From positions 1 through 12,505 of the IMG/VR virus record IMGVR_UViG_2671180747_000010: a stretch of DNA of 12,505 bases. One strand, written 5' to 3'. The position numbers were made by a program, and so were the translations under genes. Below are positions 1 through 10,053 of the stretch, piece after piece. The notes beneath the pieces were generated by a model, which saw only the letters and a program-made list of their open reading frames with translations, ran no database searches and was not told where the DNA came from. The DNA comes from a virus. Taxonomy: Duplodnaviria > Heunggongvirae > Uroviricota > Caudoviricetes. Numbering within the stretch: the stretch's first letter is position 1; every line of letters starts with the position of its first letter.

Positions 1-6
1 TCGGGG

Positions 7-31
7 AAAAAAAACCCCGCCAGTGGCGGGG
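7..31 (-). terminator. Intrinsic terminator, tR'-like (minus strand)
   Basis: Perfect 7-bp GC-rich stem CCCCGCC(15-21)/GGCGGGG(25-31) with 3-nt loop; on the minus strand it is followed by an 8-nt T run (plus-strand A8 at 7-14). Confidence 0.55.
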
Positions 32-50
32 ATCTTTTGATAAAAACGAC

Positions 51-74
51 AAAGGCACCATTAAGGTGCCTTTT
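51..74. terminator. Hairpin with flanking T-runs on both strands (possible bidirectional terminator)
   Basis: Stem GGCACC(54-59)/GGTGCC(65-70), 5-nt loop, extended by AAA/TTT pairs; followed by TTTT on the plus strand and TTTGTCGTTTTT on the minus strand. Confidence 0.35.
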
Positions 75-204
75 ACACAGGGCAGCAGGCTTGTCATCAC
101 CTTATTGCTACTCCTGGCTTCCAGTTCGGAAGTCTCACAAGTCCCATCAGGGTACAGCGACAGTATCAGTCAACACTCTATGATTCTGCTGAACAGGCAG
201 TTTC

Positions 205-340
205 GCACTGTACATTATAACCTGTTAAGCCAACAAAAAACCCGCTCGGCGGCGGGGTTTGCTTACTTTGCCATCGCGAACAAAATCTGCAAAATATCAG
301 ATTTACACGGAATATATGCTCTTCAGTTCTATTTTGCAAG
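205..340 (-). promoter_or_regulatory. Candidate late promoter (pR'-like) region downstream of the Q-like gene
   Basis: Two minus-strand candidates: (a) -35 TTGCAA (334-339), 17-bp spacer, -10 TATATT (311-316), overlapping the Q stop; (b) a perfect -10 TATAAT (214-219) with a poor -35, placing a start ~195 nt upstream of the terminators at 7-74. Sequence-only call. Confidence 0.3.
235..257 (-). terminator. Intrinsic terminator-like hairpin after the Q-like gene (minus strand)
   Basis: Stem CCCGC(241-245)/GCGGG(252-256) with 6-nt loop; on the minus strand followed by TTTTTT (plus-strand A6 at 235-240). Confidence 0.4.
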
Positions 341-1012
341 ATATGGTTCTAAATTAATCGACTTTTGCCGTGAACGTACCCGCATTACTGAAATAAGAGC
401 ATCCCTGTCCAGCATCTCTGCACTACCCCGCATAGCCAACCAGTGAGGCCTGTGTGTTTTTGTCCATGTAGATTTAGCAACTCCTATGAACACCGCTAAC
501 TCCTGATGTTCATAGGTCTCACGCCCTGCCAGCTCACTCTTCACATCCTGTGCCGCCAGCCAAATCAGTTTCTTCAGACGATCCAGCGTTTTCCCTGCAA
601 TTTTTCTGGTACCAGCCTGAGCTTTAAACTCACCCCATACCCATTGTGTTATAGTGACCTGATCTTCCCAGCAAACATTTCCACTGTAGCACCACAGTAA
701 CCACGCCTTCTGATGTTCTTCCAGTTCCAGAACGGCACGCCGCCACGATGATGTTGCAAACTCAACCGGACTGACCAGCGCAATTGATGAGCCTTTCGCC
801 AGTGATTGTTTACCCGGGATCGGTTGATTATCCCGCGTGATCATTTTTCCGGTTACCTCATCGCGATAACGAATTTTTTTGCGTCTGTAACGCCCTGTAT
901 CGAACAGGGCATTCTCCTGCCAGGCTTCCAGCTGGCCTTTTGTCGCCCCACTGAGATCCGCAGTGGCAATCATGAGTTGCTCACGAACAAACTGTAAATA
1001 CTGGTTATTCAT
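329..1012 (-). CDS. Phage antitermination protein Q-like (227 aa from ATG at 1012; a GTG at 1018 is also in frame)
   Basis: Position immediately downstream of rusA, with the ATG overlapping the rusA stop (ATGA), and immediately upstream of promoter-like sequence plus terminators. Size is typical of the longer Q families. Assignment is mainly contextual. Confidence 0.5.
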   Translation of the reverse strand: MNNQYLQFVREQLMIATADLSGATKGQLEAWQENALFDTGRYRRKKIRYRDEVTGKMITRDNQPIPGKQSLAKGSSIALVSPVEFATSSWRRAVLELEEHQKAWLLWCYSGNVCWEDQVTITQWVWGEFKAQAGTRKIAGKTLDRLKKLIWLAAQDVKSELAGRETYEHQELAVFIGVAKSTWTKTHRPHWLAMRGSAEMLDRDALISVMRVRSRQKSINLEPYLAK

Positions 1013-1368
1013 GCGCACTCCAGTTCTGTGATTTTTATCCCCAGCCGCCCGCCAGGAACAGGCAGGCCACGCACAATATTGATTTCATCAAACTGCTCAT
1101 CGTCCATTAACAACCCCGCATGCGTAAGCGCATCCAGCGGCGCTTTCAGAATATTGTCCAGGTCACGGCGGCGCTTATCCGGTGGCTCTGCAATAATCCT
1201 GATTACCAGCCTTCCGGACAGGCTTAATTTCAGCCGCTGCTGGTTAACAATAAGCGCCACAGCACGGCGATAGCGCTTTCCCTCCTCCGAGATAAAATAT
1301 GTGCTGCCACGACGACGCCAGTAGGTGTTCACCGTTGGCGGGTAAGGTAAAACCAAATCTATGAGCAT
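1009..1368 (-). CDS. rusA: Crossover junction endodeoxyribonuclease RusA (Holliday junction resolvase), 119 aa
   Basis: Translation MLIDLVLPYPPTVNTYWRRRG...PPDKRRRDLDNILKAPLDALTHAGLL...GGRLGIKITEL aligns along its length with E. coli RusA as I recall it (LPWPPSNNRYY...PDRRRRDLDNLQKA...GGRLELTITE). Strong SD AAGAGGTG upstream. Confidence 0.9.
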   Translation of the reverse strand: MLIDLVLPYPPTVNTYWRRRGSTYFISEEGKRYRRAVALIVNQQRLKLSLSGRLVIRIIAEPPDKRRRDLDNILKAPLDALTHAGLLMDDEQFDEINIVRGLPVPGGRLGIKITELECA

Positions 1369-1380
1369 CAGTCACCTCTT

Positions 1381-2430
1381 TTACCCGAGCACGCCAGTCG
1401 CAAAGGCGTGATCAAGAAAATGAAAAATTAACTCAACCTGGGACCCGTACTTTTTCTCAAACTCCAGCGGGTCAGCATGAAGTTCGTTGTGGTGCTCCCG
1501 GCACAACGGTAGTGTGAAAATATCGTGGGATTTTGTCCCCATACCGCCCTGCCCATGGCCAATCAAGTGATGCGGATCATCAGCTGGCTTTCCACAGCAT
1601 GCACACGGCTGCGTCTTAACCCAGCGCGTGAACTTTTCATTAACCCAGCGACGACGTTTAGGCCGTTTCATGAAAGATTCCGGGGACTCCGGATCAACGG
1701 CGATGCTTACTACCGTCTTTTCCTGTGGCGTGGTTTGTGGCTGGTGGGCGTGAAGCGGTGGCGCTATGTTTTTTGTCCGCTGCTTCAGGATGCTGGTGGC
1801 GGTCTGCTCTCCCGGTATGATGTCGCTCTCACTGTATACGGAGCGAATTTTTTCCACCGGTAATCCCAGCGAACGACGCAATACAGATTCCGGAAGCGCA
1901 TCAGCCACCTGATTGCAGACCGCCCACCAGGATAATTCAGCCAGCGATAATTCACGCTCCTGTGCGCCATTCATTACGTGACGGATGACGTCAATCATCC
2001 AGGCGGCCAGATTCTGTTGAGCAAGTAGCTCCAGTGAATCAGATGTCTGCTCCCGCAGGTGGTTGTCGCAGTGCCAGCACAACACCATCGCGCCGGTACT
2101 GTAACGGTGAATGACGGTTTCGCTGTGATGATAATCGCCGTGTGGCCACTGGCAGGATTTCACGTGACGTAATAACCAGTCAGACAGTACACCAGCGCCA
2201 CCCGCAGCACGGATCACCCGCTCATCGCTGAAAAATGGCAGTAATGATTTATCTTCCGCCAGCGGCTGGCGAACGGCAGGTACAAACCCGGACGGCAGAG
2301 CACGCATGCTTTTCGGTTCCGGCTCCACCAGCACCCTGCCGCAATGAAAAACAGGCAGTGATTCGCGTCCGGGCTTAAGGACCACCAGGCCAAGTTCCGG
2401 CACCAGAACAGGTCGAAGTAATACCCGCAC
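1381..2430 (-). CDS. Phage protein, DUF968/YdfU-like, with C-terminal Cys/His-rich HNH-like motif (349 aa)
   Basis: C-terminus QPCACCGKPADDPHHLIGHGQGGMGTKSHDIFTLPLCREHHNELH is a CxCC...HH...C..HH zinc-finger/HNH-like signature. Size and position upstream of rusA resemble YdfU-type nin-region proteins. GTG start preceded by GGAGG. Confidence 0.7.
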   Translation of the reverse strand: MRVLLRPVLVPELGLVVLKPGRESLPVFHCGRVLVEPEPKSMRALPSGFVPAVRQPLAEDKSLLPFFSDERVIRAAGGAGVLSDWLLRHVKSCQWPHGDYHHSETVIHRYSTGAMVLCWHCDNHLREQTSDSLELLAQQNLAAWMIDVIRHVMNGAQERELSLAELSWWAVCNQVADALPESVLRRSLGLPVEKIRSVYSESDIIPGEQTATSILKQRTKNIAPPLHAHQPQTTPQEKTVVSIAVDPESPESFMKRPKRRRWVNEKFTRWVKTQPCACCGKPADDPHHLIGHGQGGMGTKSHDIFTLPLCREHHNELHADPLEFEKKYGSQVELIFHFLDHAFATGVLG

Positions 2431-2431
2431 G

Positions 2432-2704
2432 TTACCTCCAGATACGTTGCTGGAATGTGCGGGACGGACGCGGTGGACGTTCGGAATAAGGGAGCCTGAC
2501 AGAGATTATCCAGTGACGATAATTGAGGCTGAGGGCTTTCTTAACCTCGTATCCGCGCCTGCGGTAACACTGAATCAGCCATTCGGCCTGTTCTTCAGTG
2601 CATGGAGGATGCTGGTACCAGTGGGTTTTAAATACGTGCGAATGCCGCCCCCGCTTAATGGCCGGGACGGCTTCAGAATTGTGGGATTTTATATGTTGCG
2701 CCAT
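2432..2704 (-). CDS. Hypothetical phage nin-region protein (90 aa from ATG at 2704; longer GTG start at 2722 possible)
   Basis: ORF ends 1 nt before the DUF968 gene start (operon-like). The ATG at 2704 has a GGAG SD 6 nt upstream. No family recognised. Confidence 0.45.
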   Translation of the reverse strand: MAQHIKSHNSEAVPAIKRGRHSHVFKTHWYQHPPCTEEQAEWLIQCYRRRGYEVKKALSLNYRHWIISVRLPYSERPPRPSRTFQQRIWR

Positions 2705-2722
2705 CGGGTTCTCCGGTGACAC

Positions 2723-2876
2723 AGCAGGTGCCAGTTGTTCAGGCTGGCTGGATGATTTTAACCAGAATGCGATAAAAAGTGTATAAGACCATCACATATT
2801 GCATTCATGCAAAATGATTGTTACATAATATTACTTAATAAGTATAGGTTTTACCGTTTTATCATTAGAAGATTGT
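2723..2876 (+). promoter_or_regulatory. AT-rich divergent intergenic region, probable promoter of the PAPS-reductase/ParB-like operon
   Basis: ~150 bp strongly AT-rich between divergently oriented genes. Contains TTGCAT (2799-2804) then a 17-bp spacer and TACATAATA. The exact promoter is not resolvable by eye. Confidence 0.3.
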
Positions 2877-4103
2877 ATGTCAGGAACCATAACAAAAATC
2901 AGCACAGGGGAAAATGTTCTGTCAGCAGCAATCCATCGCATTGAATGGTTGTTCGAAACGTTTAATGAGGTCTGCTTGTCTTTTTCTGGTGGCAAAGACT
3001 CTACTGTGCTTTTCCATCTTGTGGCAGAAGTCGCCAGTAGAAAAAAACGTCGTTTTTCGGTTTTATTCATTGACTGGGAAGCCCAATATCAGTGCACGAT
3101 TAATCATATCCAAAAGATGAGGGAAATGTACCGGCATGTGACAGACAATTTTTACTGGGTAGCGCTTCCTCTGACTACGGTAAATGGCGTCTCTCAGTTT
3201 CAGCCAGAATGGATATGTTGGGAGCCAGGTGTAGAATGGGTTCGTCAGCCACCAGATGACGCTATTACAGATATGTCGTATTTCCCATTTTATCGGTATG
3301 CCATGACGTTTGAAGAATTTGTTCCGGCATTTTCTTCCTGGTTTGCCGGTAACCGATGTGGAGTGGGAATACTAACTGGTGTTCGTGCTGATGAATCGCT
3401 CAATCGCTTTATGGGACTGGTGTCTCAGCGCAAACTGAGATATGCAGATGATAAACCCTGGACCACCGCTTCACCCGATGGTTTTTACTACACCATGTAT
3501 CCATTGTATGACTGGAAAACAAATGATATATGGACGTATAACTCAAGAACCCGCGCCATCTACAATCCCCTGTACGACCTAATGTACCGTGCCGGAGTGT
3601 CGTTACGCAACATGCGTGTTTGTGAGCCCTTTGGCCCGGAACAGCGTAAGGGGCTGTGGCTTTACCATGTTCTGGAGCCGGAAACCTGGGCCAGGATGTG
3701 TGAGCGAGTGTCAGGGGCTGCCAGTGGCGCTCTTTATGCCAATGAAAGCGGTGCCTATTTTGCTCTGCGTAAACGAATCACAAAACCGGCTCATCATACC
3801 TGGCGCAGCTACGCAATGTTCATGCTGGATGTTATGCCAGAAAGAACAGCAGAACATTACCGTAACAAAATTGCAGTCTACCTGCGCTGGTATCAGACGC
3901 GGGGCTTCCCGGATGATATCCCGGATGAACAGGAGAATGACCTGGGGAGCCGGGATATCCCGTCCTGGCGACGTATCTGTAAGACGCTCATAAAGAATGA
4001 CTTCTGGTGCCGGACCCTCTCCTTCAGTCCGAACAAACCCCGGCACTATGAGCGTTATCTGCAACGAATGAAGGAAAGGAGGAAAGAATGGGGGATTCTG
4101 TGA
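2877..4103 (+). CDS. PAPS-reductase-family PP-loop protein (IbrA/YbdN-like; DndC/SspD superfamily), 408 aa
   Basis: N-terminal SFSGGKDS PP-loop ATP-pyrophosphatase motif; length ~406 aa matches YbdN/IbrA. Followed by an overlapping ParB-like gene, as in ybdNM/ibrAB. Confidence 0.85.
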   Translation: MSGTITKISTGENVLSAAIHRIEWLFETFNEVCLSFSGGKDSTVLFHLVAEVASRKKRRFSVLFIDWEAQYQCTINHIQKMREMYRHVTDNFYWVALPLTTVNGVSQFQPEWICWEPGVEWVRQPPDDAITDMSYFPFYRYAMTFEEFVPAFSSWFAGNRCGVGILTGVRADESLNRFMGLVSQRKLRYADDKPWTTASPDGFYYTMYPLYDWKTNDIWTYNSRTRAIYNPLYDLMYRAGVSLRNMRVCEPFGPEQRKGLWLYHVLEPETWARMCERVSGAASGALYANESGAYFALRKRITKPAHHTWRSYAMFMLDVMPERTAEHYRNKIAVYLRWYQTRGFPDDIPDEQENDLGSRDIPSWRRICKTLIKNDFWCRTLSFSPNKPRHYERYLQRMKERRKEWGIL

Positions 4104-4732
4104 CGCCTGAGATGGATGTACTAAGCAACATGATTCGTCAGTACTTCAGTCGGGAACAGCCCGAAGAAGAGTCCATACGAGCCCTTAACCATCTGCGCAG
4201 GGTACTGCATGAAGTCAGTCCTTTTGCACAGGAGCCTGTAGACTGTGTGCTGTGGGTGAAAGCGGATGAGGTGGTAGCCAACGATTATAACCCCAATGTC
4301 ATGGCACCAAGTGAGAAGAAACTGCTGAAGCAGTCACTGGAAAAAGATGGTTTCACACAACCGGTGGTGGTGTCAGAGGAGAAGAATCATTATCTGGTGG
4401 TGGATGGTTTTCATCGTCAGTTATTGGGCAGAGAATCAGTTACAGGAAAACGTCTGAGGGGCTGGCTGCCTGTAGCCTGTATTAATCCAGAGAGAAAAGG
4501 GCAAGCCGCACGCATTGCCGCAACCATTCGACATAACCGGGCTAGGGGGAAACACCAGATAGACTCAGTGTCTGATATTGTAAGAGATCTTTCACGCTTG
4601 GGATGGGCAGATGAACGCATTGGCACTGAGTTGGGTATGGATCAGGATGAAGTACTGAGACTTAAACAAATTAGCGGGCTAACTGAGTTATTTCAGGAAG
4701 TGGATTTCAGCCCGGCATGGACAGTTAAATAG
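4088..4732 (+). CDS. ParB/sulfiredoxin-fold (DGxHR-like) protein, IbrB/YbdM-like, 214 aa
   Basis: VVDGFHRQ motif and an arginine-rich segment (ARIAATIRHNRARG) typical of ParB N-terminal-domain/DndB-like proteins. Start overlaps the upstream gene by 16 nt with an AGGAGG SD (translational coupling). Confidence 0.8.
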   Translation: MGDSVTPEMDVLSNMIRQYFSREQPEEESIRALNHLRRVLHEVSPFAQEPVDCVLWVKADEVVANDYNPNVMAPSEKKLLKQSLEKDGFTQPVVVSEEKNHYLVVDGFHRQLLGRESVTGKRLRGWLPVACINPERKGQAARIAATIRHNRARGKHQIDSVSDIVRDLSRLGWADERIGTELGMDQDEVLRLKQISGLTELFQEVDFSPAWTVK

Positions 4733-4785
4733 CAAGCTCGACTTACTCCCGGCAAGGCAACAAAATGATAACTAATACAACTCAA

Positions 4786-4808
4786 GGGCGATTAATATCG
4801 CCCCTTTT
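4786..4808. terminator. Hairpin between convergent genes (possible bidirectional terminator)
   Basis: GGGCGAT(4786-4792) TAAT ATCGCCC(4797-4803) followed by CTTTT on the plus strand. The T tract is weak. Confidence 0.35.
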
Positions 4809-4897
4809 ACTGCTCAATTTTCGACCGATACATCTACTTGACTCTCGTTTTACTCCCCCTTTTTACCCGATATGGAAATTCCCATATCGTAATGAAT

Positions 4898-5002
4898 TCA
4901 GCTCCCCAGACGATCCATCAAAAGCACGACCAGGCAGTAAACACCCACAACAACAATAACGGCCAGAGCGCCTTCCATTGCCAGTGAGATATCATCCGAC
5001 AT
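4898..5002 (-). CDS. Small hydrophobic peptide (34 aa), predicted single transmembrane helix
   Basis: ATG preceded by AAGGAGG SD. Translation MSDDISLAMEGALAVIVVVGVYCLVVLLMDRLGS. Not in the supplied ORF track (below its size cut-off). Confidence 0.45.
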   Translation of the reverse strand: MSDDISLAMEGALAVIVVVGVYCLVVLLMDRLGS

Positions 5003-5037
5003 ATTCCCTCCTTTGGTGTGAATCCCGGCGAACGTTT

Positions 5038-5121
5038 TTACCCCCACCGACAAATAACATATATTAAAAAAGCGATAACCATAGCAACGCCTGTAATTGC
5101 AAATGCTTCAGGCCAGTTCAT
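5038..5121 (-). CDS. Small hydrophobic peptide (27 aa), predicted single transmembrane helix
   Basis: ATG overlaps the stop of the upstream DUF551 gene (ATGA) and is preceded by AGGAGGTG SD. Translation MNWPEAFAITGVAMVIAFLIYVICRWG. Confidence 0.45.
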   Translation of the reverse strand: MNWPEAFAITGVAMVIAFLIYVICRWG

Positions 5122-5630
5122 TGGCGCACCTCCTGCGGCGGTTCTGGTAGCGGCATCCAGCCGGTTACATTGCGGCTCTGTGTTTCGAAAAATTCATCAC
5201 CATTACGGACTACATCAAAAAACTCACCGTCTCGATATTGCGCATAAAGAACGAATGCGCCATCACATAAAATAATTACGTGCTGACCATCATCCGGCAT
5301 TCGCTCACTACAGCTTATCCAACCATCCGGAGTTACCGGATAGTTGGTTGACGTTTCCGAGATTTCCCGAAAATTATTGGTTGACGACCCCTTATTTTCC
5401 CGAAAGTTTCCAGCCTGAAGCATGGCGGCGCGGTGACACCAGATAATCCAGCCAAGCGCCATATCCCATGCCATGTATTCTCTATCGCCATTTTTTGCTC
5501 TGCGGCGATCTACAGATTCTCCGAAACGCTTCTCCATAAATAATTCATAGGCTGCTCGTTCATCCGATACTGCTGCCAGTGATGCCAGCGCAATCCGTGC
5601 CAGCTCTTCCGCTTCTTCTGCTGGAAGCAC
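5118..5630 (-). CDS. DUF551-type phage protein (170 aa from GTG); likely N-terminally disrupted (see finding)
   Basis: C-terminal DGWISCSERMPDDGQ...GWMPLPEPP resembles the DUF551 signature (W-x-S-x-x-D-x-LP ... GWMPLP). An in-frame upstream ATG at 5705 with SD is cut off by TGA at 5682-5684. Confidence 0.6.
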   Translation of the reverse strand: MLPAEEAEELARIALASLAAVSDERAAYELFMEKRFGESVDRRRAKNGDREYMAWDMALGWIIWCHRAAMLQAGNFRENKGSSTNNFREISETSTNYPVTPDGWISCSERMPDDGQHVIILCDGAFVLYAQYRDGEFFDVVRNGDEFFETQSRNVTGWMPLPEPPQEVRQ

Positions 5631-5977
5631 AACGTTGCTACCCGGTCCGTATGTTTCGCGCCAATGCTGGATTGTCAGCAGTCAATCTTTGGTAATAGTG
5701 GTCATGCCGCGTTTCCTTCTTTCTTATTGTAACCAGGTGAATCATTTGATACCAACGAGGGTTTTAGTGAAAGGAGGTGAAATCACCTGTAAGATACTGA
5801 AATAAAACAGGTGATGTCTGGATGAGCGCTTAAAGTCTATTTGATATCGATTGTGCAATAATTAATCGTTTATTCTAAAATCGGCAAAACTTTTGATACT
5901 GCGATCTCAACTTTTTAAAGCGTTTAAAACTTCATTAAATCTATATGGCAACTAACATACGGGCCAGCCTCGCCAAA

Positions 5978-6508
5978 CTAACCCGCTTTAGATTCTACCG
6001 GATTTGATTGCCTACTTGTCTCGGTTTTTTCCAAAATCTCTCTGACGCAATCGTCTGGCATATCTACAATCATCAACGCAGCCAGGCGCTTCCTGCCTTC
6101 TAGTTGTAATAAATCTTGGTTTTCTTTATTCAGCAGTGTCAGAACCGTCTCTACACCTTTGCGAGCAAGGAGATTGGTTAACTGTTCTCGTTCGTCTTTC
6201 GTAAGGAATGAAAGCATCTGTGTAAGCTGATCTCCCTTATCACCAGAACAACCAAAATTACCATAAATACCAATATCGTTTGGTAATTCACCCTTGCCCT
6301 CTTTAAGCCACTCAAGACTAACGCCTTCACTTTCAGAAATTCGTATAAGGATACTTTCTCTGGGGGCTGGTTGTGTTTGTCCTCCCTTGAAATAGCTGTT
6401 TAATGTGTTGATATTGATTCCCCACGCTCTGGCAGCTGCACTTCTTGAAGGGTAGCGCTTTGTAAGCATTCCAATACGTTCAATAACAGGTTCTTTTCCC
6501 TGCGACAT
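5978..6508 (-). CDS. Mu-like prophage repressor (c-like), HTH DNA-binding protein, 176 aa from ATG at 6508
   Basis: Leftward gene divergent from ner/A/B, as for Mu c. ATG at 6508 has an AAGAGG SD; the track's longer 6583 start lacks one. Putative HTH segment RSAAARAWGININTLNSYFKG; C-terminal part loosely resembles Mu c. Confidence 0.7.
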   Translation of the reverse strand: MSQGKEPVIERIGMLTKRYPSRSAAARAWGININTLNSYFKGGQTQPAPRESILIRISESEGVSLEWLKEGKGELPNDIGIYGNFGCSGDKGDQLTQMLSFLTKDEREQLTNLLARKGVETVLTLLNKENQDLLQLEGRKRLAALMIVDMPDDCVREILEKTETSRQSNPVESKAG

Positions 6509-6590
6509 AAAGATACCTCTTGGTGCTTTTCTAAGGAAAGGTTTCTTTCTATTTATCCAATTGAAAAATAAGGATAAAAGCAAAAATTAG

Positions 6591-6639
6591 CCAAAATACC
6601 AAAAATACCTTGATTTGGTATTTTTGGTGATGCATTATT
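6591..6639. promoter_or_regulatory. Operator-like palindrome overlapping a candidate early promoter (Pe-like) for ner-A-B
   Basis: Perfect 12-bp inverted repeat ACCAAAAATACC (6598-6609) / GGTATTTTTGGT (6617-6628) with a tandem CCAAAATACC copy at 6591-6600. Overlaps -35 TTGATT (6610-6615), 18-bp spacer, TG-extended -10 ATTATT (6634-6639). Confidence 0.45.
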
Positions 6640-6650
6640 TACCCGTACAG

Positions 6651-6670
6651 ATATCCGCACGAATATCCGC
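6651..6670. promoter_or_regulatory. Direct repeat ATATCCGC x2 at 12-bp spacing upstream of ner (possible Ner/IHF-type site)
   Basis: ATATCCGC at 6651-6658 and 6663-6670, between the candidate Pe and the ner SD. Confidence 0.25.
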
Positions 6671-6698
6671 GCGGGTAACTTTTTAGAATAGAGGAAGT

Positions 6699-6947
6699 AT
6701 GAGTAGAAGAGAAGTTTCAGATCACGATTGGCCGCCTGAAATCATCAAGGCGCGCTTACACATGGCTGGCTTATCACTGCGCTCTTTATCTTTAAAGGCT
6801 GGTTACAGCAGGGATTCGCTGAAAAGCGTATTACGTACTCCTTGCCGACCGTATCAGCAAATAATTGCTGATGCTCTTGGGGTATCACCTGAAGAAATCT
6901 GGCCCAGTCGATACCAGGTTAAGAGCTATATGAGAAAGGCGTCATGA
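6699..6947 (+). CDS. ner: Ner-like DNA-binding transcriptional regulator (Mu Ner / Nlp family), 82 aa
   Basis: DWPPEIIKARLHMAGLSLRSLS...IIADALGVSPEEIWPSRYQ matches Mu Ner / E. coli Nlp (DWHPADIIAGLRK...IWPSRY). SD GAGGAAG upstream; located between repressor and transposase. Confidence 0.88.
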   Translation: MSRREVSDHDWPPEIIKARLHMAGLSLRSLSLKAGYSRDSLKSVLRTPCRPYQQIIADALGVSPEEIWPSRYQVKSYMRKAS

Positions 6948-6948
6948 T

Positions 6949-9039
6949 ATGTATGTCATTGCAAAAGAACTGATTGGCGCGCCCGGAATGCCTGCTACAA
7001 CAAAAGGTATTCGCCAGGCATTACAACGTTACGTACAAGGGAAAAGCTGTTGTTCCCGTCGTCGCTCAGGCTCTAAAGCAACTGAATACAGCATCGACTG
7101 TTTACCTGAAGTGACGCAGCAGGCATTACGTGAACGCTACGCCCTGCAACTGATGACGCAAAAAGCCGATGAATCACCGGCTCCGGTGGTGACAAAGGCC
7201 AGACGCTCACCTGCCGTGGTTGATGCGGTGGAGGCATATCGCGGATCACCCCAACTGATGGTCGAACGCCTCAATGCCCTGACTGAAAACCAACGTAAAG
7301 TGGCAGAGGCACGAATAGCGATCGTCAGCGAGGTGCTGAAAATCGCGCAACAACCCGGCTTTAGTTGCGCTAAGGCTATCCGGTTCCTCGTTAACAGCCT
7401 GGCACGATCACAACTGGACGAGCGCATTGTGGCAATGGTTGAGACGGCGAACGCCAAAAAGGGAAACAGCCGCGCGTTGAGTGAAATCACGCTGAAACGC
7501 TGGATTGCGGCCTTTAACAAGGCACAGAACGCCGCTGAACGCCTGCTTTTACTGGCACCGGGTAAACGCCAGGAAATAAAAGCCGAAGATATTAACTGGC
7601 TGCCCGAATTTCTGGCGCAGTATCGCCAGTCAAACGGCCGACCAATGACCGAGGCTTACGAGGATTTTGTTGCTGAATGGCAGCACCGGCACGCTGATGA
7701 GCCTTATATGCTCGATATCATGCCCTCTTATGACACCATTCGCCGCGCAATGAAGAAACTGCCGGAAGTGGTGAAACAAAAAGGCCGGGTAACTGGCAGT
7801 GAATACCGTCAGCTTGAGGGATTCACGCGCCGCGACTGGTCCAGAATGCCGGTGAATTATGTCTGGATTGGTGACGGTCACGGCATGAAGCTGAAATGCG
7901 CGCACCCGGTTCACGGGCGGCCATTCGCACCGGAAGTGACCTTTGTTATCGACGGTGGCACGCGCTTTGTGGTGGGCTGGAGCCTTGACCTGGCTGAAAA
8001 TGTTTTCGCCGTAGCCGGTGCCATACAGCACGGTATTCGCCATCATGGCAAACCGTTTCTGTATTACTCGGATAATGGCTCCGGGGAAACCGCCGACGTC
8101 CTGGATAAGGAGATTGTGGGGATACTGCCACGACTGGGGATTAATCACCCGACAGGGATTGCCGGTAATCCGCAGGGACGGGGCATTATCGAACGGCTTA
8201 ACCGCACATTACCGATGCGCATAGCCCGTAAATACCGCACCTATTTCGGGAAAGGAGCAGATCGCGAGACGTTACGTAAAACCAACCGCGATTTACGCTC
8301 GGCATTCAGTGCCCTGCAACAGGGCAAACGGCTGAACGCCCGGCAGCAGTCAGCGATGCGTGATTTACCGTCCTGGTCTGAACTGATTGATGCCATTCGT
8401 GACGGTGTTGAGTGGTACAACAACCGGCCGCACGATGAATTACCCATGAAGCCGAACGGTAAACATTACAGCCCGGCGGAGTTCAGAAAAAAACGCCTGG
8501 CGGAAGAGGACACGGAAATTGAATGGCTGTCCGATGTGGAATTGCGGGACATGTTCCGGCCGATGGTGGAACGCCCTGTAAGACGCTGTGAAATACGCTG
8601 GCTGAATAATATTTACTACGCGCCCGAGCTGCGTGATGAACATGGCCGCAAAGTGCTTATCAGCTATGACATTCATGATGCCGAACGAATTACCGTGCGT
8701 CGCCTGGATGGCAGCGTGATTTGCGAGGCGGTATGGGACGGCAATAAACGCGAAGCCTTCCCGGTCAGCGCGGAATACTACAAACAGCAGCAGCGTCTTA
8801 AAGGCATGCGTAAACGCGCAGAGGAAAAAATTCGTGATGCCGAGGATGAGGTTATCAACGTGCTGGAGCACAAGCCGCAGGAGCCATGGCTGGAAAACAT
8901 ATACCGCCCTATGGGTAATACGGTGGCCGTTCAGCAGCCAGCGATTGATGATGAACCTGACGAAGAATACGAGCGTAATTTCCAGCGGGGATTACAGCTG
9001 CTTGAAGCGAAATTAAAAGAAAATGACCCGCTGGCCTGA
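6949..9039 (+). CDS. Mu-type DDE transposase (MuA-like), 696 aa
   Basis: Starts 2 nt after the ner stop. Candidate DDE-region motifs VWIGDGHG and YYSDNGSG. C-terminus YRPMGNTVAVQQP...DEEYERNFQRGLQLLE resembles the MuA C-terminus (FRPSGNTERV...DDEYETERDEYLNHSLDILE, from memory). Confidence 0.92.
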   Translation: MYVIAKELIGAPGMPATTKGIRQALQRYVQGKSCCSRRRSGSKATEYSIDCLPEVTQQALRERYALQLMTQKADESPAPVVTKARRSPAVVDAVEAYRGSPQLMVERLNALTENQRKVAEARIAIVSEVLKIAQQPGFSCAKAIRFLVNSLARSQLDERIVAMVETANAKKGNSRALSEITLKRWIAAFNKAQNAAERLLLLAPGKRQEIKAEDINWLPEFLAQYRQSNGRPMTEAYEDFVAEWQHRHADEPYMLDIMPSYDTIRRAMKKLPEVVKQKGRVTGSEYRQLEGFTRRDWSRMPVNYVWIGDGHGMKLKCAHPVHGRPFAPEVTFVIDGGTRFVVGWSLDLAENVFAVAGAIQHGIRHHGKPFLYYSDNGSGETADVLDKEIVGILPRLGINHPTGIAGNPQGRGIIERLNRTLPMRIARKYRTYFGKGADRETLRKTNRDLRSAFSALQQGKRLNARQQSAMRDLPSWSELIDAIRDGVEWYNNRPHDELPMKPNGKHYSPAEFRKKRLAEEDTEIEWLSDVELRDMFRPMVERPVRRCEIRWLNNIYYAPELRDEHGRKVLISYDIHDAERITVRRLDGSVICEAVWDGNKREAFPVSAEYYKQQQRLKGMRKRAEEKIRDAEDEVINVLEHKPQEPWLENIYRPMGNTVAVQQPAIDDEPDEEYERNFQRGLQLLEAKLKENDPLA

Positions 9040-9120: not shown

Positions 9121-10053
9121 ATGACTGATATTAACGATGTAATCAAGACCATAGATGAACTTATTGATGGCGGCGTACTGACGCAGTATGCCATCGCCAG
9201 GGAGGCGGGAATTTCCGACGGCACATTATCGGCTTTCCGCAAAGGGAAATATAAAGGAGACAATGATGCTATAACGGCGGCCATGCTTTCCTGGTATGAA
9301 AACTGGAATAAACAAAGCGCACTGTCCGAGCTGCCACAGTTTGTGGAAACGCAGACAGTCCAGGAGCTGCGCGCACTGTTTCAGGCGGTTCGCCTGATGG
9401 GCTGTATTAACGTCATAGTGGGCGTGCCGGGTGTGGGTAAAACGGCCACCGCCCGTAATTACTGCCAGGAGCAACCGAACACCTGGATGATCACCCTGTC
9501 ACCCGCGCACTCCAGCGTCACGGAGTGTCTGCTGGAGCTGGCAGAGGAACTGGGGATTGATTACACCCGCGCGAACAAAGGGGCATTATCCCGCGCCATC
9601 CGCCGTCGCCTGATGGGAAAGCGCGGACTGGTGATTGTTGATGAGGCTGATCATCTTGGTATTGACGGTCTGGAGCAACTCCGGGCAATCCAGGACGCCA
9701 CAGGGGTCGGGATGGTGCTTATTGGTAACCCAAAGGGGCTGTTTAAAGGCGGACGCCGCGCCGTTGATGATTTATCTCGCCTGTTCAGCCGTCTTGCCCG
9801 TACAAAACAACTACGCAAGGCCAAAAAAGCGGATGTGCTGGCTATTGCCAGGGCATGGGGGATTAGTGGTGAGGCCGAGCTGGCTGTCATGCAGGCTATC
9901 GCTGAAAAACCGGGGGCATTACGCGTTCTGACGCATACGCTTAACCAGGCGTGGATCACCGCCAGCGGTGAAGGTGCGGCACTGACAGAAAAACATATTA
10001 ATGCGGCCTTTAAAGAGGTTTATGCCAACCCTGAATTACTCTCACAGGTGTGA
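9121..10053 (+). CDS. Mu B-like transposition ATPase / target DNA activator, 310 aa
   Basis: Walker A GVPGVGKT. Extensive similarity to Mu B as recalled (GTLSAFRKGKYKGDN vs GTISSFINDKYNGDN; LPQFVETQTV; GLVIVDEADHLG; KKADVLAIA; KPGALRVL). SD GAGGT upstream. Confidence 0.92.
   Translation: MTDINDVIKTIDELIDGGVLTQYAIAREAGISDGTLSAFRKGKYKGDNDAITAAMLSWYENWNKQSALSELPQFVETQTVQELRALFQAVRLMGCINVIVGVPGVGKTATARNYCQEQPNTWMITLSPAHSSVTECLLELAEELGIDYTRANKGALSRAIRRRLMGKRGLVIVDEADHLGIDGLEQLRAIQDATGVGMVLIGNPKGLFKGGRRAVDDLSRLFSRLARTKQLRKAKKADVLAIARAWGISGEAELAVMQAIAEKPGALRVLTHTLNQAWITASGEGAALTEKHINAAFKEVYANPELLSQV

Follow-up and report, generated by a model that had tools for sequence, protein, structure and literature searches.

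The DNA analyzed here is a stretch of 12,505 nt (the window) from the IMG/VR virus record IMGVR_UViG_2671180747_000010, and the region of interest is the 190-bp gap between two divergent genes of a Mu-like prophage contained in it. To the left of the gap lies a repressor gene (5978–6508, minus strand; 176 aa), and to the right lies ner (6699–6947, plus strand; 82 aa), which is followed by the genes of transposase A (6949–9039, plus strand; Mu-transpos_C and HTH_Tnp_Mu_1 domains) and of a MuB-like ATPase (9121–10053, plus strand; Phage-MuB_C and AAA_22 domains). A divergent repressor and ner pair followed by MuA-type transposase and MuB-type ATPase genes is the arrangement of a Mu-like early region. 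The Ner protein matched Pfam HTH_35 (2.5e-19), as well as the structures of Mu Ner (1NEQ, 9e-9) and EnrR (7F9H, 1.6e-8). An initial annotation, made by a model from the sequence, gave the limits 6509–6698, which coincide exactly with the DNA separating the start codon of the repressor (ATG at 6508, minus strand) from that of ner (ATG at 6699). The data presented below make it very likely that this gap is the lysis/lysogeny control region of the phage, composed of an early promoter (Pe), a palindromic repressor operator, and an array of Ner operator sites. This is an ordinary kind of phage switch, the present version of which is previously undescribed.

The region was compared with about 40 non-redundant relatives. 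These were collected from E. coli genomes, phage records (Pseudomonas phage VW-6B, and Yersinia phages Tongde and YpM_5), IMG/VR contigs, a scan of metagenome contigs, which contributed four loci, and contigs encoding diverse homologues (Serratia, Klebsiella, Edwardsiella, Pantoea, Cedecea, Providencia, and others). Individual loci are referred to by number (L001 and so on). A scan of genome contigs with the repressor protein alone returned three weak helix–turn–helix (HTH) matches in Aquificae metagenome bins, which are unrelated to the element. The window was 97.3% identical over 3.3 kb to prophage Sp18 of E. coli O157:H7 Sakai, and its intergenic region differed from that of Sp18 by one base. 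Directly observed here are the features of the sequence, the extent to which they are conserved, and the way they vary together with the two regulatory proteins.

Pe was located by conservation combined with a weight-matrix scan. It occupies positions 6610–6638 of the plus strand, with the −35 element TTGATT (6610–6615), a 17-bp spacer, and the −10 element CATTAT (6633–6638). In every distinct relative (32 + 15 upstream regions) a −35 element, a spacer of 17–18 bp, and a −10 element of the form nAnnnT were found in the same place, and Pe had the top plus-strand score in nearly all loci. The spacer was 17 bp long in nearly all loci and 18 bp long in L002 and the YpM_5 group. The −35 elements of the relatives had the forms TTGAYT, TTGACA, or TTTACn, and their −10 elements shared A at position 2 and T at position 6; the window fits this sigma-70 layout. 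The −35 element is the one chosen in the initial annotation. The −10 element had been read there as ATTATT (6634–6639), and the conserved register is one base further left. The ATTATT register was rejected because its second position is T instead of the near-invariant A. A TG-extended −10 had also been proposed, but positions −15 and −14 are A6630 and T6631, the relatives have ATC or TCT there, and the TG noted upstream of the −10 belongs to the outer operator subsite GGTGAT described below. The transcript start is predicted at about 6645–6647. In many relatives a GATC sequence, which is a Dam site, is present 3–6 bases upstream of the Pe −10, as in GTGATC-AATACT (e.g., L003, L011, L023, L024, L026, L012, L038–L040, L067–L070, and L076), and at this place the window has GATG. 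In IS10 and Tn5, the transposase promoters are known to be sensitive to Dam methylation. In one near-identical copy, L014 (IMG/VR), the −35 element is altered to TTGGTT.

The −35 element of Pe is enclosed by the perfect inverted repeat that had been pointed out in the initial annotation. Its 12-bp arms, ACCAAAAATACC (6598–6609) and GGTATTTTTGGT (6617–6628), are separated by the 7-bp spacer TTGATTT, and the dyad is centered at 6613. In the 12.5-kb window this is the sole perfect inverted repeat of at least 12 bp with a spacer of at most 20. Such a repeat was contained in four of 500 dinucleotide-preserving shuffles of the whole window and in three of 5000 shuffles of the 190-bp intergenic sequence. 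The additional half-site CCAAAATACC was present at 6591–6600, as had been noted. In many lineages an inverted repeat is centered on the fourth base of the −35 despite differing arm sequences. The fuller, 15-bp arms found in L023 and L026, which read ATCAC[CG]AAAAATACC and GGTATTTTT[CG]GTGAT (in L023 the operator is ATCACGAAAAATACC-TTGAATT-GGTATTTTTCGTGAT), indicate that each arm holds two subsites, 9 bp apart. The putative primary operator of the window at 6591–6631 consists accordingly of subsites CCAAAATACC (6591–6600), AAAAATACC (6601–6609), GGTATTTTT (6617–6625), and GGTGAT (6626–6631). The inner half-sites, ..ATACC and GGTAT.. (TACC-N7-GGTA), flank the −35 with their centers 11 bp apart, a spacing that would suit two HTH domains of the P22/434 type bound as a dimer in successive major grooves, and the outer subsites are located 9 bp beyond the inner ones on either side. 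Several near-identical copies, including L001, L005, L006, and L019, carry GGTATTTTTAGT, which spoils the 12-bp perfection.

A natural exchange of modules connects the palindrome with the repressor. The L002 locus (E. coli SMN013SH2) shares the ner module with the window and has a swapped repressor. The two are 99.6% identical in ner, 96% in the first 1350 nt of A, and 98.5% between the −10 and the ner ATG, while the identity is 54% in the repressor gene and 60% in the intergenic DNA to the left of the −10. The right arm of L002 is GGTTCTTTT where the window has GGTATTTTT. Hence, the palindrome belongs to the repressor module, and not to the ner module. The arms were next set against the predicted recognition helices of 39 non-redundant repressors. 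Arms of the type GT[AG][TC]TTT were found with 14 repressors whose helix has the form ..S-Y-F/Y, the one other repressor with this helix having GTT(T)CTTT arms. The latter arms accompanied 16 helices of the form ..N-Y-Y, with neither arm type present at the one further locus, and all seven helices of the form ..N-Y-F/L also had neither type. The conserved promoter, the palindrome centered on its −35, the co-variation of arm and helix, and the module swap together support the earlier suggestion that the repressor occludes the early promoter, and the palindrome appears to be the core of the primary operator of this repressor.

The second block of sites lies between Pe and ner. The initial annotation reported that ATATCCGC occurs twice at a 12-bp interval, and these copies, at 6651–6658 and 6663–6670, are the only exact ones in the window. 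Some 8-mer was repeated at a distance of 8–15 bp in 172 of 5000 shuffles (3.4%), so the direct repeat alone is weak evidence, and its significance comes from conservation in the relatives. The comparison showed that the location had been recognized correctly, while the true unit is not the phased ATATCCGC repeat but a row of four to five alternately oriented GGATAA-like half-sites. In the window the array spans 6639–6691 and consists of TTACCCG (6639–6645), AGATATCC (6649–6656), GAATATCC (6661–6668), CGGGTAAC (6672–6679), and a possible fifth half-site, AGAATAG (6685–6691). The half-site centers are 10, 13, 10, and 13 bp apart, and the row extends from just past the −10 to the ribosome-binding site, about −6 to +45 relative to the predicted start. 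The distance from the −10 to the ner ATG was 66–67 nt in all 21 aligned lineages, the consensus of which is tAT..TTTatCC.ta.gGATA.CCgcgcG.gtTATCCGcgCGG.TAACTTTTTAGGaTAgagGAAt.ATG, with TTatCC..GATAaCCgcgcGgtTATCCGcgCGG.TAACTTTTTAGGaTAg as the consensus of the array itself. In most relatives the two central sites are GATAACCG and GTTATCCG in opposite orientation; in Tongde, the palindrome that they make up is perfect. The Sp18 lineage has GATATCCG and AATATCCG at these places, which gives rise to the apparent direct repeat, and in L003 and L004 both sites are GGATATCC. The outer sites of the window, TTACCCG and CGGGTAA, complete a 19-nt imperfect dyad, the arms of which, TTACCCGTACAGATATCCG and CGAATATCCGCGCGGGTAA, are 79% complementary over 19 nt.

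The array block was 98.5% identical between phages that share ner (99.6%) and have only 54% identity in the repressor. This co-inheritance suggests that the array is the operator of Ner, and repeated and dyad-symmetric sites are found, as expected of a Ner operator, between the early promoter and the ner start. The array occupies the position that the 11-bp inverted repeat has in D108 and that repeated CTAAGT/ACTTAG-type motifs have in Mu, upstream of ner. Of the two regulators that had been proposed to act downstream of Pe, Ner or an integration host factor (IHF)-like protein, the former is thus favored by the inheritance of the block with its gene, and the candidate IHF site was found elsewhere, at 6554–6566. 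It was also considered that the repeats are bound by a host factor, either IHF or DnaA, or that they give structure to the leader RNA. The TTATCC sequence of the relatives resembles the start of a DnaA box, and the early leader folds at −17.8 kcal/mol with z = −2.4, which we judged weak and unremarkable. The ATATCC block contains, however, no match to the IHF consensus WATCAANNNNTTR, the DnaA-box matches identified by eye have two to three mismatches in most lineages including the window, and the block is inherited with ner. The pairing of half-sites 1 and 4 is not kept either, as these read TTACCC/GGGTAA in the window, TTGCCC/GGATAA in L011, and TTGTCC/GAATAA in L028. This lack of half-site co-variation and the unremarkable leader fold make a structural RNA role unlikely, and the host factor or leader explanation as a whole is very improbable.

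The assignment of the two blocks could also be reversed, so that the palindrome would be the Ner operator, as in phage D108, and the ATATCC block would have another role. In D108, the repeat CCGTGAGCTAC-N8-GTAGCTCACGG is located just upstream of ner, and its geometry is similar to the 12 bp-N7-12 bp of the palindrome. On the other hand, L002 and L029 have an identical Ner and another repressor, and there the palindrome arms differ and the ATATCC block is unchanged. Moreover, the D108 repeat lies directly upstream of ner, which is the place of the ATATCC block, and the palindrome here lies over the −35. A palindrome bound by Ner is therefore extremely unlikely.

The repressor was analyzed by structure modeling and profile comparison. 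The model contains helices at residues 8–16, 22–29, 33–40, 51–61, and 65–70 with a predicted local distance difference test (pLDDT) score of about 90, a disordered linker at residues 71–93 (pLDDT below 50 at 79–88), and a helical C-terminal domain. The N-terminal part is a five-helix HTH domain of the CI/Cro type, which matched the folds of the P22 c2, 434, SinR, and 186 CI (2FJR) domains. Against P22 c2 the target-normalized template modeling score was 0.74–0.77 with a root-mean-square deviation of 2.3–2.5 Å, and it was about 0.75 for the P22 c2 and 434 domains; the Foldseek E-values of the whole two-domain model were weak. The predicted recognition helix is helix 3, residues 33–40 (NTLNSYFK). 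The protein matched phrog_3037 (6.7e-61), and residues 91–174 in its C-terminal part matched phrog_7148, the Mu c family (1.5e-10). Reciprocally, residues 69–163 of Mu c matched phrog_3037 (8.5e-5), and BLASTP against Mu c gave 29% identity over 80 aa in the C-terminal part only. The Mu c C-terminal domain is known to function in multimerization and regulation. The Mu c N terminus matches the transposase family phrog_310, and the repressor of the window does not; its N terminus had no similarity to that of Mu c or to that of the transposase A of the same element. Hence, the protein shares the homologous C-terminal domain of the Mu c family and lacks its MuA-like N-terminal winged helix, and it is a hybrid of a P22/434/186-type HTH domain and a Mu c-like C-terminal domain. 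In other searches, Pfam gave only a sub-threshold YfeC-like match for the repressor, no relative was found in a sequence search of the PDB, and no similarity to the self-cleaving C-terminal domain of the LexA/CI type was detected. PF07022 (Phage_CI_repr, the 186 CI family) did not match the window protein and is carried by a few homologues, some homologues being named 'bacteriophage CI repressor'. A terminator-like hairpin at 5959–5986 on the minus strand, with 12 pairs of which five are G-C, overlaps the repressor stop codon (5978–5980) and is likely the end of the repressor transcript.

The domain composition of the repressor bears on the further explanation that the A-rich repeats around the −35 are mainly a transposition enhancer bound by the N-terminal domain of the transposase. 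In Mu, one sequence serves as both operator and enhancer, and there is homology between repressor and transposase (PMC3820752). The transposase of the window retains HTH_Tnp_Mu_1 (2.2e-6), and the core AAAATACCTTGATTTGG is retained in E. coli phages of both immunity types. However, the repressor DNA-binding domain resembles neither the transposase nor the Mu c N terminus, so the basis for shared sites is missing, and phages with A genes of 96% identity have different arms. A role of these repeats mainly as an enhancer is thus quite unlikely, and the repressor operator remains the preferred assignment.

Sequences resembling the operator half-site were also found at two places toward and within the repressor gene. 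A candidate second operator, AAAGATACC-TCTT-GGTGCTTTT (6509–6530), is located beside the repressor start codon and overlaps its ribosome-binding site. A candidate distal operator (6252–6289) consists of the tandem half-sites CCAAAATTACC (6252–6262) and ATAAATACC (6263–6271) and the inverted TGGTAATTC (6281–6289), which are one-mismatch matches to the operator half-site and lie within the codons of the repressor linker, about 350 bp from the main operator. Half-sites of each phage's own type with at most one mismatch were counted in 39 loci in zones defined relative to the −35 start. They were found in 27 of the 39 loci in the zone from −112 to −72 (2.4 per 100 bp) and in 26 of 39 in the zone from −420 to −290 (0.8 per 100 bp), as compared with 0–5 of 39 in four control zones (0.00–0.06 per 100 bp). 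When the half-sites were permuted among loci, the observed counts were not reached in the proximal zone (P < 2e-4; 0 of 5000) or in the distal zone (P < 5e-5; 0 of 20000). At 6489–6497 and the equivalent place of all relatives, the conserved residues G-K-E-P near the N terminus of the repressor are encoded by GGAAAAGAACC, which happens to match the GTTC-type half-site perfectly, whichever of the two immunity types the phage has; this inflates the counts near −121, and the position was therefore excluded from the tested zones.

The proximal repeat is coding (K-E-x-x-G-S-F) in those relatives which have a longer N terminus, so a constraint from the protein is possible there. The repressor frame of the window also extends a further 75 nt upstream from its ATG (6508) without a stop codon (6509–6583, minus strand), and the mechanically called open reading frame starts with a TTG at 6583. 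The relatives encode the N-terminal extension MxKE..GSF over the equivalent of 6509–6583. In the Sp18 lineage and in L003, translation starts later, so that the inverted repeat falls into the 5′ untranslated region. For the distal zone, synonymous-codon shuffles of all loci showed 20 observed half-sites versus a mean of 7.2 and a maximum of 14 in 2000 shuffles (P < 0.0005), and in the window lineage two were observed versus 0.29 expected (P = 0.014), which points to selection on the DNA. The distal motif is written in differing frames and orientations among the phages. The cluster of the window encodes IGIYGNFG, the motif of Tongde lies in the opposite orientation and encodes ENTKNTK, in GTTC-type phages AAAAGAAC encodes K-E-P in one place and K-R-T in another frame, and L021 has four 8-bp repeats in three reading frames. 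The linker peptides vary widely (GIYGNFG, ENTKNTK, KEPIEQTKRTK, KEQKNKRAKEQK), which suggests that the linker peptide may be shaped by the DNA-binding specificity of its own protein.

The candidate IHF site, TTTCAATTGGATA (6554–6566, minus strand), has the repressor start on one side and the main operator on the other. A match to the IHF consensus with at most one mismatch was present on the same strand, at −56 or −57 from the −35, in eight of 23 representative relatives (e.g., TATCAATTGGTTG and TATCAATGCATTG), and three further relatives had such a match at −68 or −79. E. coli variants retain the block with this site whichever of the two immunity types they have. It is possible, though not quite probable, that in each immunity type the half-sites of the repressor are written into its own gene and that these clusters are bridged through the Mu c-like domain, with IHF bending the DNA between the proximal pair, giving looped, cooperative repression of the transposase promoter and autoregulation.

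Two candidate promoters could serve the repressor gene on the minus strand. The first, candidate (a), spans 6685–6713, with its −35, TTCTCT (6713–6708), inside ner, a 17-bp spacer, and the −10 TATTCT (6690–6685); it scored 7.6 bits, with a predicted start at about 6678, and about 10 lineages have TTCATT-17-TATCCT at this offset. The position of candidate (a) is that of Pc in Mu. The second, candidate (b), spans 6565–6594 and has the −35 TTGGCT (6594–6589), which overlaps the outer operator subsite, an 18-bp spacer, and the −10 TATTTT (6570–6565). It scored 9.5 bits, with a predicted start at about 6558, and similar hits were found at −42 to −69 in many relatives.

Several observations weigh against the assignment of 6509–6698 as a control region of the kind described above. 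Pe of the window matches the promoter consensus at only eight of 12 positions and was missed by a simple promoter scan, the repressor promoter has two competing candidates, (a) and (b), and TTTCAATTGGATA has two mismatches to the IHF consensus. The association of the helix with the arm type (Fisher's exact test of the S-Y-F/Y versus N-Y-Y groups, P = 6e-8) was calculated ignoring shared ancestry, and as only about 200 bp separate the operator from the codons of the helix, linkage alone would yield some association. The inner left half-site AAAATACC persists in E. coli phages with the other repressor type, and the literature searched contained no paper on ECs4943–4945 or the Sp18 control region. 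Finally, a scan marked the palindrome as terminator-like on the minus strand, with the 12-bp stem and 7-nt loop followed by AUUUUGG, and this hairpin folds at −15.1 kcal/mol with z = −3.1.

The last observations could mean that the palindrome is mainly an RNA hairpin of the leftward transcript, that is a terminator, an attenuator, or a leader structure, rather than a protein site. In seven relatives, the corresponding DNA likewise gives a fold (−10 to −21 kcal/mol), and a leftward transcript would contain the hairpin if the repressor promoter were near ner, which is its position in Mu. As a terminator, however, the hairpin is poor in G-C pairs (eight of the 12 stem pairs are A-U and four G-C), and only four U residues follow it. 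Its loop is always the −35 hexamer of the conserved promoter in a fixed register, and the arm types are few and track the recognition helix, which a hairpin would not require. The same half-site also recurs as direct tandem copies, such as the three copies of AAAATACC in L006, and in two further locations that form no hairpin, which fits a protein site and not a hairpin. In L006 (E. coli OkiPb01714) the three tandem copies are created by an 8-bp insertion. No Rfam family matched the sequence between 5600 and 7000. We consider it improbable that the palindrome is mainly an RNA element, although its hairpin may have a secondary role in attenuation of leftward transcripts.

With the palindrome as a repressor operator and the ATATCC block as the Ner operator, the switch could work in the following way, in which binding, occlusion, looping, and the transcript starts are inferred from the sequence comparisons. 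The sigma-70 promoter Pe would drive ner, A, and B. The repressor bound to the palindrome would cover the −35 and the spacer, and would thereby keep RNA polymerase off. Ner produced from the early transcript would bind the downstream array and turn Pe down, and it would also lower the activity of the repressor promoter, if the one near the ner start is real. The repressor, through its Mu c-like C-terminal multimerization domain, would probably also bind the half-sites of its own type at 6509–6530 and 6252–6289. A bend induced by IHF at the candidate site 6554–6566, between 6509–6530 and the primary operator, could then act together with these contacts in cooperative, looped repression.

The organization of the region has much in common with that of Mu. 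In both, an operator covers the early promoter, as in the operator/enhancer (O/E) region of Mu with its IHF site (PMC3820752), and the left end is about 1 kb away from the divergent repressor and ner-A-B genes. Extra operator clusters extend toward the repressor gene (O1–O3 in Mu) with an IHF site in between, these clusters and the IHF site being candidates here, and Ner sites, putative here, lie between Pe and ner. The Ner proteins and the repressor C-terminal domains are also homologous. On the other hand, the repressor DNA-binding domain is here an HTH of the P22/434/186 type in place of the MuA-like winged helix, and as this class is unlike that of Mu, the operator is not expected to double as a transposase enhancer. 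Further differences are that the main operator is a true palindrome centered on the −35, that the Ner half-site is GGATAA-like where the Mu stretch has CTAAGT/ACTTAG-type motifs, and that one candidate auxiliary cluster lies within the repressor coding sequence. The comparative evidence thus bears out the statement of the initial annotation that these operators differ from those of Mu itself.

Ner of Mu and D108 binds the elements upstream of ner and represses both Pe and Pc, and the D108 protein binds an 11-bp inverted repeat with an 8-bp spacer. D108 Ner has reportedly also been studied with a 61-bp operator, as the title in a reference list indicates, and a literature search on the D108 Ner operator found nothing useful. 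As in D108, a long dyad-symmetric element is located here directly upstream of ner, but it is composed of four to five degenerate half-sites with centers 10–13 bp apart instead of one perfect 11-bp repeat with an 8-bp spacer, and the sequences of the two elements are unrelated. EnrR (7F9H/7F9I) is homologous to the Ner protein described here; its monomers pair on the short continuous palindrome CTATAG (PMC9023278), and GATATC and GGATATCC occur here and in L003/L004. EnrR, however, is encoded on the chromosome and regulates globally, through AT-rich targets, whereas the Ner of the window would have a phased array dedicated to it beside its own gene.

Among CI-type repressors, that of phage 186 similarly combines a CI-type HTH N-terminal domain with a multimerizing C-terminal domain, and its distal operators (FL/FR), about 300 bp from the main one, aid repression by looping (PMC3675496). 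Phage 186 is the nearest precedent for the distal cluster found here. It differs in that the C-terminal domain is here Mu c-like and not a wheel domain, that just one distal cluster is present, located toward the repressor, that the switch partner is Ner, and that the phage is transposable. With P22 c2, 434, and lambda CI the repressor shares the five-helix HTH, palindromic operators overlapping the lytic promoter, and immunity types set by matched changes of helix and operator. Unlike in these systems, the dyad is centered on the −35, there is no tripartite OR1-3, and no self-cleaving C-terminal domain of the LexA/CI type was detected.

The Mu-like prophage begins at position 5728 (first letters TGTAACCAGG / TGTAACC...), and the DNA to its left (1–5727) is part of a lambdoid, Shiga toxin (Stx)-type prophage that matches many Stx1- and Stx2-converting phages, with a DUF551-domain gene (5118–5630) shortly before the insertion. 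The left end at 5728 is shared by all matches in complete E. coli genomes, and the neighbors of the element vary between genomes (rhsD, ypdB, citrate lyase, dcuC, sorM, and phage genes). Hence, an end near the repressor gene and insertion sites that differ between genomes are both observed, as for a Mu-like element. A similarly inserted Mu-like phage is also annotated in two deposited Stx phages. The Sakai record describes the matching stretch as "prophage Sp18, Mu-like phage" and names ECs_4943 (the repressor gene) a regulatory protein, ECs_4944 (ner) a DNA-binding protein, and ECs_4945/4946 transposition proteins. Sp18 is an apparently intact Mu-like prophage, which mitomycin C fails to induce (PMC2669165). 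Of 5426 complete E. coli genomes, 195 contained the control region, among them O157:H7 and further producers of Shiga toxin. Just inside the left end, at 5724–5818, there are three copies of an AGGTGAA(A)TCA / CAGGTGA motif (5731–5745, 5772–5790, and, inverted, 5807–5818), which are probably transposase end-binding sites, the counterparts of L1–L3 of Mu.

These data describe a Mu-type switch whose repressor no longer shares the DNA-binding domain of the transposase, and with the loss of this link it must be asked at which place the transposition enhancer is now located. Immunity groups are predictable from the sequence, as the S-Y-F helix goes with GGTAT arms and the N-Y-Y helix with GGTTC arms, and the promoter, the operator code, and the Ner array provide a ready set of mutations for tests of induction and transposition. 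If the intragenic auxiliary operators are real, they would be a clear case in which a regulatory site constrains the coding sequence of its own regulator. Sp18-type prophages are common and insert at many sites, including within Stx prophages as in the window, and the switch described here is a widespread and uncharacterized one, with probable auxiliary operators within the repressor gene.

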